Positions 59,603-59,883 of a DNA stretch of 64,000 bases are shown piece by piece (the first letter of the stretch is position 1; the number at the start of each line of letters is the position of its first letter). Source of the DNA: an uncultured Acidobacteriota bacterium (GTDB lineage: Bacteria > Acidobacteriota > Vicinamibacteria > Vicinamibacterales > Fen-181); the NCBI GenBank assembly GCA_963813585.1, contig CAWEZL010000001.1:118056-182055 (forward strand), given 5' to 3'. Under the pieces are notes generated by a model, which did not search any database, had not been told where the DNA came from, and saw nothing but the letters and a program-made list of their open reading frames with translations. A program made the position numbers and the translations under genes.

Positions 59603-59818
59603 ATGAAACGGTCGAAAAACCCGACGGTAAGCCGTCGCAAGCTGGCAAGGCAGGCCCTCCTCCTCGCCATGTTGGGCGCAGCCGCCTACACTGCGCCGGC
59701 CAGCGCCCAGAATCCCTGCGGCCCGAACAACAAAGCCTGCCAGGACGTTGGCTTCCCCGGCTGCTGCGGTGGGAGTTGCGTATGCGGCCCGAATTACTGC
59801 GAATGCGCATGCTGTTGA
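59603..59818 (+). CDS. Sec-secreted cysteine-rich mini-protein precursor (71 aa; predicted 36-aa mature peptide with 10 Cys)
   Basis: AAGGAG RBS 7 nt upstream of ATG. Signal peptide MKRSKNPTVSRRKLARQALLLAMLGAAAYTAPASA. Mature QNPCGPNNKACQDVGFPGCCGGSCVCGPNYCECACC with CC, CxC, CxC and CC motifs. Confidence 0.7.
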   Translation: MKRSKNPTVSRRKLARQALLLAMLGAAAYTAPASAQNPCGPNNKACQDVGFPGCCGGSCVCGPNYCECACC

Positions 59819-59851
59819 CCTCGGTCCGCTCCTAACCGGTTAACGAATGGG

Positions 59852-59883
59852 CCGGGGGAGAGTCCCTGCCCCCTCTCCCCCGG
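59852..59883 (+). terminator. perfect 11-bp-stem hairpin between the peptide gene and downstream enzyme genes (attenuator/terminator-like, no T-tract)
   Basis: CCGGGGGAGAG-tccctgcccc-CTCTCCCCCGG lies 34 nt after the peptide stop codon. The RBS of the next gene follows. Confidence 0.4.

Follow-up and report, generated by a model that had tools for sequence, protein, structure and literature searches.

A rare family of cysteine-rich pre-peptides linked to thioredoxin-fold and ADOP permease genes in a predicted genomic island of an uncultured acidobacterium

What is the role of a tiny cysteine-rich secreted peptide whose gene stands directly ahead of genes for a thioredoxin-fold protein, a glycosyltransferase and a permease? 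This question is raised by a locus near the end of a 64-kb window of DNA from an uncultured Acidobacteriota bacterium (the whole stretch analyzed, 64,000 nucleotides of contig CAWEZL010000001.1, assembly GCA_963813585.1; positions are those of the window unless another locus is named). In this window, the plus-strand open reading frame (ORF) at 59603-59818 encodes a 71-residue product, MKRSKNPTVSRRKLARQALLLAMLGAAAYTAPASAQNPCGPNNKACQDVGFPGCCGGSCVCGPNYCECACC, which divides into a signal part, MKRSKNPTVSRRKLARQALLLAMLGAAAYTAPASA, and a mature part, QNPCGPNNKACQDVGFPGCCGGSCVCGPNYCECACC. The peptide family is very rare and previously undescribed. Its sequence and gene context tentatively favor a Sec-exported, disulfide-rich, bacteriocin-like peptide served by a dedicated oxidoreductase and by MacB-type export or immunity, a reading that we regard as a little short of probable. 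Systems in which a secreted peptide has maturation and transport genes of its own are known in kind, and this family is a further, undescribed case.

A rare pre-peptide family with an invariant cysteine framework

The ORF has the layout of an exported peptide gene. A strong Shine-Dalgarno motif, AAGGAG, is read on the plus strand at 59590-59595, 7 nt 5′ of the ATG. The signal-coding part (59603-59707, plus strand) specifies 35 residues with a charged n-region, a hydrophobic h-region and A-S-A at -3 to -1, and scripted scoring gave an n-region charge of +7 and a 12-residue hydrophobic core, ALLLAMLGAAAY. The remaining part (59708-59818, plus strand, including the stop codon) specifies 36 residues, of which ten are invariant cysteines (27.8%), arranged in CC, CxC and terminal CxCxCC motifs. 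From these features we infer export via Sec and cleavage after ASA. The original prediction, made from the letters of the window, had described a gene for a pre-peptide that bears a Sec-type signal, with a stem-loop and then enzymes downstream; this layout is supported, the signal features expected around an AXA-type site (APASA/Q) are present, and a 36-residue mature part with 28% cysteine is borne out by the count of ten. It had also proposed a pyroglutamate-capable N terminus, but in relatives position +1 varies among Q, Y, S, A, G, L and C, so the Gln is not conserved and pyroglutamate is no family feature. The n-region of the window peptide reads SRRKLAR and weakly matches a TAT-signal model (15.6 bits against a cut-off of 48). 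Twin-arginine translocation (Tat) was considered on account of SRRKL; the RR pair is missing in most relatives and, since the twin arginine of the window copy is not conserved, Tat export is unlikely as a family trait.

Homologs are scarce and share a strict framework. A word-indexed search of 5.8 billion proteins with the single sequence returned same-strain copies only. Exhaustive HMMER comparison with 1.84 billion representative proteins found ten true homologs (65-82 aa, 32-57% identity) and a profile search added two more, which brings the distant relatives to about a dozen, 55-82 aa in length; one further candidate, P0010 (998 aa, with repeats), was dropped because it matches the signal region only. 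The total family comes to ~14 sequences among roughly 15 billion proteins, with no member in 185,579 GTDB species representatives and no match when viral contigs were scanned with the peptide profile. We found no description in the literature of the family or of its link to the ADOP permeases described below, which a further search showed to be mentioned in passing only. The alignment of 13 sequences follows C-x6-C-x3-G-x2-G-C-C-x2,3-C-x-C-x4-8-C-x-C-x-C-C, a framework that ends at the C terminus or within three residues of it and in which C39, C46, G50, G53, C54, C55, C59, C61, C66, C68, C70 and C71 are invariant (13/13). Every member carries a predicted signal peptide. Locus L021 has a shorter variant with 12 cysteines (...NGCDCLTYGTCCSMCTCSGCCCDCICCQ). 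No Pfam or NCBIfam model matches any member. The family thus stands outside all curated libraries with an unusually dense invariant framework, ten cysteines in ~33 residues. In its alignment the glycines do not vary, one position stays aromatic or hydrophobic and the loops have set lengths, which together point to a defined fold.

Variation among close copies raises the possibility that so small an ORF is spurious, a chance product of G+C-rich DNA. The near-identical metagenome copy L001 has an 8-nt insertion at 59722 (L001 2178-2185) that shifts the frame of the peptide gene, and the near-identical copy L002 has lost 66 nt in frame between two TGCGGCCCGAA repeats (59717-59727 and 59783-59793, plus strand), removing five cysteines; the flanking kilobases of both copies are nearly identical to the window. 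In addition, a 171-aa antisense ORF overlaps the peptide ORF. The original prediction had held that absence or variability of the ORF in closely related strains would mark it as spurious. Variability of this kind does occur, but the inference drawn from it fails, as distant homologs (34-57% identity) keep every one of the ten cysteines, both glycines, the signal peptide and the gene order. Furthermore, the two tandem precursor genes of the forest-soil contig L022 (L022 9743-10222, 75 and 73 aa) differ with a ratio of nonsynonymous to synonymous substitution rates (dN/dS) of 0.16 in the signal part and 0.28 in the mature part, the Shine-Dalgarno motif is strong, and the ORF is intact in 4/6 independent samples. 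Conservation across the family already refutes a chance ORF, to which we give practically no credence. On these comparisons, namely the cysteines, glycines, signal and gene order kept by distant homologs together with dN/dS < 0.3, the ORF is a real gene that is under purifying selection where it is kept. Diversifying selection was tested on the same two L022 paralogs, and dN/dS < 1 gave no evidence for it. The disrupted alleles in near-clonal copies also indicate that the gene is dispensable.

Both disruptive alleles map to the same 11-nt repeat, TGCGGCCCGAA, with the L001 insertion lying inside its first copy and the L002 deletion bounded by the two copies. Either a mutational hot spot at the repeat or repeated counter-selection may lie behind this; the cases number two only.

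The cysteine spacing of the N-terminal half resembles that of knottins. This half had been called knottin-like from the sequence, and the resemblance holds at the level of spacing: C39-x6-C46-x7-C54C55-x3-C59, followed by further cysteines and invariant in the alignment, gives the C-C-CC-C-C framework, and the first five cysteines are placed exactly as in bleogen pB1 (PDB 5xbd; C-x6-C-x7-CC-x3-C), whose precursor likewise consists of a signal and a mature part of ~36 aa and which carries the knottin-type motif CXnCXnCCXnCXnC (PMC5743680). It does not extend to sequence homology. Among PDB profiles the best matches are sublancin (E 0.99) and bleogen pB1 (E 1.5, the best knottin match), neither of them significant, and Pfam contains no knottin profile that matches. 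More generally, Pfam and NCBIfam scans of all 13 members at E up to 10 returned no metallothionein, knottin, conotoxin, toxin or defensin, so that the kinships considered in the original prediction found no model behind them. Hypervariable loops between invariant cysteines are shared with knottins, 6C-hevein-like peptides and inhibitor cystine knot peptides, whereas knottins are eukaryotic and the window family has four extra cysteines ending C-x-C-x-CC.

A recurrent cassette of peptide, thioredoxin-fold and permease genes

The peptide gene is followed by genes whose order recurs in distant lineages. The enzymes expected downstream are confirmed as a Redoxin/TlpA-like CxxC protein (59899-60396) and a glycosyltransferase family 4 (GT4) protein (60415-62355), both on the plus strand. 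The first is a membrane-anchored thioredoxin-fold protein of 165 aa with one N-terminal hydrophobic segment, a CHYC active site and a cis-Pro TP loop. It matches Pfam Redoxin (E 2.4e-5) and, weakly, the NCBIfam models TraF-like (E 7e-5), TrbB (E 0.004), MauD (E 0.008), ResA and DsbE; its orthologs share C-[HQKRV]-[YF]-C and the cis-Pro TP loop. The second is a predicted cytoplasmic protein of 646 aa with no conserved transmembrane segment, in which a C-terminal GT4 (GT-B) domain of 360 aa (Pfam Glyco_trans_1_4 E 3e-26, Glyco_transf_4 E 2e-15, and also Glycos_transf_1) follows an N-domain of ~280 aa. This N-domain has no credible match in Pfam, NCBIfam or PDB profile searches and is conserved in L006, L013 and L022; a single-sequence AlphaFold2 model of the protein reached a predicted local distance difference test score (pLDDT) of 36. 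Next in order is a plus-strand gene for a duplicated MacB-type permease of the ADOP family (TIGR03434 E 1.7e-78), which begins at 62357 and runs past the window end at 64000. MacB_PCD and FtsX domains each occur twice in the ADOP proteins of L001, L006 and L012. A six-frame reading shows that the window copy is frameshifted by an extra T at 63541 relative to L001 and L003, whereas the gene is intact (794 aa) in L001, where the peptide gene is the broken one. The extra T could be a sequencing error or could reflect a reciprocal loss of toxin and handler. The window also carries one extra C at 58454 relative to both L001 and L003; together the two extra bases suggest occasional indel errors in the window assembly.

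We compared neighborhoods across nine independent lineages (window/L001, L006, L012, L018, L021, L022, L025 and the contigs of P0015 and P0019). The thioredoxin-like gene lies directly 3′ of the peptide gene in seven sequence-verified lineages (window, L006, L012, L018, L021, L022 and L025), and ORFs of matching size occupy its place on two further contigs. A GT4 protein with the same unmatched N-domain is found in seven lineages. A secreted protein of ~250 aa (230-270 aa) was seen by sequence in L001, L006, L012, L018 and L022, with ORFs of similar or truncated size at its place on two more contigs; it has no credible match in Pfam, NCBIfam or PDB profiles and no detectable similarity to LolA. 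A MacB-type or ADOP permease appears wherever a contig extends far enough to reveal it. The nine lineages share the order peptide, thioredoxin-fold C-x-[YF]-C protein, usually GT4, ~250-aa secreted protein and ADOP permease. L018 and L021 have the peptide gene, the thioredoxin-like gene and ADOP without an adjacent glycosyltransferase, so the core of the cassette is the peptide, the thioredoxin-like protein and the permease. GTDB species genomes scanned twice, once using the thioredoxin-like protein and once using its alignment, returned no match, and PADLOC matched no defense system.

The thioredoxin-like family also occurs beside a different client. In a viral-classed IMG/VR contig (UViG_3300026088_000837; L028 7884-8629), a homolog with a CQYC motif overlaps the start of a gene for an unrelated secreted peptide, which is aromatic-rich, has 85 aa and 8 cysteines and does not look like a metallothionein. 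This pairing with an unrelated 8-Cys peptide suggests that the thioredoxin-like family may serve disulfide-rich secreted peptides in general.

Two of the loci have additions of their own. Upstream of the L022 precursors, a regulator of the AraC type is encoded together with a protein of 202 aa that matches sigma-70 region 2 weakly, below the cut-off, and is possibly related to extracytoplasmic function (ECF) sigma factors, and two paralogs of the ~235-aa secreted protein flank the L022 ADOP gene. In L006, a B12-binding radical S-adenosylmethionine (rSAM) gene and a 41-aa ORF stand directly upstream of the precursor (L006 2885-4461) and were not seen in the other loci.

With the partner genes in view, the metallothionein-like motifs of the original prediction can be weighed. 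The peptide could be a secreted thiol- or metal-binding molecule, an exported metallothionein-like protein or a metallophore, whose CxC and CC motifs would bind Cu, Zn, Cd or metalloids; the TlpA/ResA-like neighbor would keep its cysteines reduced and the MacB-type permease would expel the loaded peptide. Its 28% cysteine, its CC, CxC and terminal CxCxCC motifs, its acidic to neutral charge (as in many metal-binding peptides) and the odd cysteine counts of some members are consistent with this reading, as are the weak matches of the partner protein to the periplasmic reductases ResA and DsbE and the general tendency of mobile islands to carry metal resistance genes. To our knowledge, known bacterial metallothioneins (SmtA/BmtA, MymT) are cytosolic and lack signal peptides; the window family shares their high cysteine content and their CxC and CC motifs and differs in being exported and in having neither an HMM match (0/13 members match metallothionein models at E up to 10) nor a metal-related gene context. 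No P-type ATPase, CopC/D, multicopper oxidase, CzcD or ArsR/MerR gene occurs in the nine loci, which leaves the cysteine pattern as what the earlier claim can cite. The invariant glycines, the conserved aromatic or hydrophobic position and the fixed loops argue for a defined fold instead, and the thioredoxin-like homolog of L028 partners a peptide that is not metallothionein-like. Finally, C-x-P-C is typical of TlpA or ResA reductases, unlike the C-x-[YF]-C found here. We consider metal binding unlikely, and a disulfide-knotted competition peptide more likely than a metallothionein.

A candidate route of oxidative folding and MacB-type export

A disulfide-rich competition peptide would make sense of the cassette as a pathway. 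The pre-peptide would be exported and cleaved after ASA, and in the periplasm its cysteines would be oxidized or shuffled by the membrane-anchored thioredoxin-fold protein into a compact multi-disulfide, possibly knottin-like, fold, a step suggested by the strict gene linkage and by family resemblance. The ADOP permease and the ~250-aa secreted protein would then expel the folded peptide or protect the producer, by analogy with STII/MacAB-TolC and with MacB-type immunity pumps. In most cassettes the cytoplasmic GT4 protein may glycosylate the precursor before export or modify an envelope component, and the stem-loop downstream of the peptide gene would probably raise expression of the peptide relative to the accessory genes or couple their translation. 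A bacteriocin-like role in competition fits best because of the mobile context, the tandem duplication of precursors and the loss-of-function alleles.

Known systems offer precedents for the parts of this route. Enterotoxin STII of E. coli is exported by Sec, oxidized by DsbA and then handled by MacAB-TolC; MacB-type pumps act on periplasmic substrates, and their relatives BceAB, YknYZ and AS-48EFGH export peptide antibiotics or give protection from them (PMC5985334). The cassette shares with the STII route a small cysteine-containing peptide with a Sec signal, a thioredoxin-fold enzyme and a permease of the MacB type (type VII ATP-binding cassette, ABC). It differs in that the sequences are not similar and STII has 4 cysteines versus 10 here, in that STII relies on housekeeping DsbA versus a dedicated operon-encoded oxidoreductase here, and in that the cassette ADOP is fused and duplicated, lacks an ATPase domain and is not accompanied by MacA or TolC. 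An FtsX/MacB-fold permease linked to a secreted peptide toxin is likewise seen for BceAB, for YknXYZ versus SDP and for AS-48EFGH (PMC5985334, PMC4887032); these Firmicutes systems encode their own ATPase, whereas ADOP is an orphan duplicated permease. For the oxidoreductase, MauD (with the methylamine dehydrogenase small subunit), TrbB (of F plasmids) and BdbA (of the sublancin operon) are similar in being anchored thioredoxin-fold CxxC proteins beside a cysteine-rich client, but the scores here are far below cut-offs, the motif is C-[HQKRV]-[YF]-C and the client is a 36-aa peptide.

Several observations weigh against a folded, exported competition peptide. The HMM matches of the thioredoxin-like protein, all below cut-offs, mix reductases (ResA, DsbE, TlpA-type) with helpers of oxidases and isomerases (TrbB, MauD), so that either direction of redox activity would fit them. 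The MacB-fold permease of tripartite export is present (ADOP, TIGR03434), but no cassette contains a cognate ATPase, a membrane-fusion protein or an outer-membrane factor; these partners may be supplied from elsewhere in the genome. The mature peptides are all neutral to acidic (net charge 0 to -7), while many bacteriocins are cationic. Six family members have 11 cysteines, and an odd count implies that at least one thiol is free, modified or metal-bound. If the peptide is the substrate of the GT4 protein, glycosylation must take place before Sec export. Last, AlphaFold2 run on the 13-sequence alignment gave a pLDDT of ~55-60 for the mature part, too low to support the threaded I-IV, II-V, III-VI connectivity of a cystine knot, and Foldseek returned 0 hits against the PDB.

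A competition peptide would give the ADOP permeases a client. Their role has been described as unknown (PMC3914696). They are abundant in Acidobacteria and some Bacteroidota, and the linkage of peptide, thioredoxin-fold and ADOP genes yields a concrete substrate hypothesis for them. A bolder version, in which the family would be the first bacterial knottin-like one, a Sec-exported, five-disulfide and possibly GT4-glycosylated peptide toxin with ADOP-dependent export or neutralization, seems doubtful on the present sequences. If that version is true, the peptides would be the first substrate class for the large ADOP family of Acidobacteria-type genomes and the cassette a new Gram-negative mobile bacteriocin architecture. 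Were a cystine knot formed, engineers of peptides and those who produce them heterologously would gain a bacterial scaffold that is small, stable and supplied with a folding catalyst of its own.

The glycosyltransferase invites a more specific version of the favored explanation, in which the peptide would be a functional analog of glycocins. As in sublancin or pallidocin clusters, the GT4 protein would S- or O-glycosylate the precursor in the cytoplasm, export would follow, and the thioredoxin-like protein would form the disulfides. The gene inventories run parallel (precursor, glycosyltransferase, thioredoxin-like protein and transporter), and in glycocins (sublancin, pallidocin, glycocin F) the disulfides are essential (PMC6405829). 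The cassette has a thioredoxin-fold CxxC gene directly downstream of the precursor in 7 lineages, with no DsbB-like gene seen. Sublancin is also the best PDB profile match of the peptide, non-significant at E 0.99, aligning over C-x6-C-x7-C and placing its S-glucosylated Cys22 loop opposite the conserved G-CC-GG. The members with 11 cysteines would leave one unpaired for S-glycosylation, and the glycosyltransferases of L006, L012 and L022 match Pfam GT4-conflict. Defining features of glycocins are nevertheless missing: these have a double-glycine leader, a SunS-like glycosyltransferase, a SunT-type exporter and 5 cysteines of which four form a nested pair of disulfides, and their producers are Firmicutes, whereas the cassette combines a Sec signal, a GT4 protein with an unmatched N-domain, ADOP in place of a C39-peptidase ABC exporter, 10-12 cysteines and a 70% G+C host with ADOP genes. 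Moreover, L018 and L021 lack an adjacent glycosyltransferase, the presence of a glycosyltransferase goes with no conserved Ser, Thr or additional Cys, and the window peptide has an even number of cysteines. We judge a glycocin analog quite unlikely. Hallmarks of other peptides that are made on ribosomes and modified after translation (RiPPs) are also lacking, with no rSAM, LanM or YcaO-type enzyme near the loci except the B12-rSAM gene of L006, and the N-terminal extension is secretory. By analogy, the cassette would work like both glycocin clusters and the STII/MacAB route and is a member of neither, as it fails defining features of both.

The glycosyltransferase and the permease could instead be the center of an envelope-remodeling module, in which GT4, ADOP and the ~250-aa protein would make and export a glycolipid or glycan in the manner of DevBCA, and the cysteine-rich peptide with its oxidoreductase would be a structural or regulatory add-on or a signaling peptide. 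Exporters of glycolipids do belong to the MacB family, as do extractors of the LolCDE type with their periplasmic carrier proteins (PMC5985334), the best NCBIfam matches of the GT4 protein are exopolysaccharide or PEP-CTERM glycosyltransferases (far below cut-offs), and AraC-type regulators lie beside several cassettes, with an ECF-sigma-like protein beside one. But the tightest linkage joins the peptide, the thioredoxin-like protein and ADOP rather than the glycosyltransferase and ADOP, two loci having no adjacent glycosyltransferase. The tandem precursor duplication in L022 is typical of effector peptides, and no similarity of the ~250-aa protein to LolA or to another family could be detected. 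An envelope module is, on this balance, a distinctly improbable account of the cassette.

A hairpin between the peptide and thioredoxin-like genes

The spacer downstream of the peptide gene contains a real hairpin that lacks the U-tract of an intrinsic terminator. It had been predicted as a perfect hairpin with an 11-bp stem; the hairpin is present, on the plus strand at 59851-59884, but its perfect G+C-rich stem has 12 bp (arms 59851-59862 and 59873-59884, 10-nt loop) and begins 32 nt past the peptide stop codon. Perfect hairpins of at least 12 bp are rare by chance, with two distinct ones in the 64-kb window versus 0.2 expected from first-order Markov simulations, while the 86-nt spacer has a folding energy in keeping with its richness in G+C (z = -0.35 to -0.5). 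The stem was also thought to be terminator-like; no U-tract follows it (the next sequence is AGGGGAGGUUCUCAG) and it goes uncalled in a terminator scan, which sets it apart from canonical intrinsic terminators. The Shine-Dalgarno sequence of the thioredoxin-like gene, AGGGGAGG (59885-59892, plus strand), abuts the stem, and both minimum free energy and centroid folds pair it with ACCUC directly after the peptide stop codon, a predicted pairing that suggests translational coupling. In other loci the same spacer holds stem-loops of unrelated sequence in L006 and L018 (z = -4.05) and none in L012. With unrelated hairpins in 2/3 other loci examined, a role as attenuator, mRNA stabilizer or translational coupler stays plausible.

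The only other perfect hairpin of at least 12 bp in the window lies at 17436-17469 (13-bp stem), ahead of a flavin mononucleotide (FMN) riboswitch (17579-17695, Rfam 103.6 bits) upstream of the gene at 17784-18938.

The cassette in a tRNA-integrated island

Sequence composition and repeats place the cassette inside an island. A plus-strand tRNA-Ser(GGA) gene at 51778-51867 (ARAGORN, Rfam) forms the attL of a region of ~16 kb. A direct repeat of the final 27 nt of the tRNA marks the attR at 10449-10475 of L001, ~4 kb past the window end, and G+C falls from ~0.70 outside to 0.60-0.65 inside, from 51868 onward. With the tRNA 3′ repeat found ~16 kb downstream in the near-identical L001, the cassette is, on this evidence, cargo of a tRNA-integrated island. 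Next to the tRNA lies a degraded tyrosine-integrase gene (51869-52980, minus strand; a 168-aa fragment with Pfam Phage_integrase E 1.8e-16), followed by an excisionase-like HTH_17 gene (53279-53518, HTH_17 E 8e-12). The integrase is intact in L003, with 371 aa. Relative to L003, the integrase region (51.9-53.2 kb) has 81 differences including many indels, whereas the rest of the island has only a handful. Its fragmentation could reflect a decaying integrase in an island that has become fixed, or a low-quality patch of the assembly. Mobile genes accompany other cassettes as well: several have integrases, IS110 elements or toxin-antitoxin genes as neighbors, with an integrase adjoining the cassette in L006 and IS110 in L012.

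The island holds further features of interest. Direct copies of a ~450-bp segment, 81-92% identical, lie 1562 bp apart at 54420-54866 and 55982-56428; each contains an identical hairpin with an 11-bp stem (54594-54623 and 56156-56185), and the surrounding ORFs have no family match. A second secreted cysteine-rich protein, of 172 aa, is encoded in the same island ~2.3-2.8 kb past the window end (L001 8788-9306), with a signal peptide and a C-terminal ...GPCYECCLTCDGIQYCACLVSTSCGSCCCRDCCG that includes 14 cysteines; it has no Pfam, NCBIfam or PADLOC match. Elsewhere in the window, a minus-strand ORF at 21445-25980 encodes 1511 aa that join a complete AcrB-type resistance-nodulation-division (RND) transporter (residues 4-1012) to an outer-membrane efflux protein (OEP) domain (1323-1503), a predicted fusion that would be unusual if the ORF is real.

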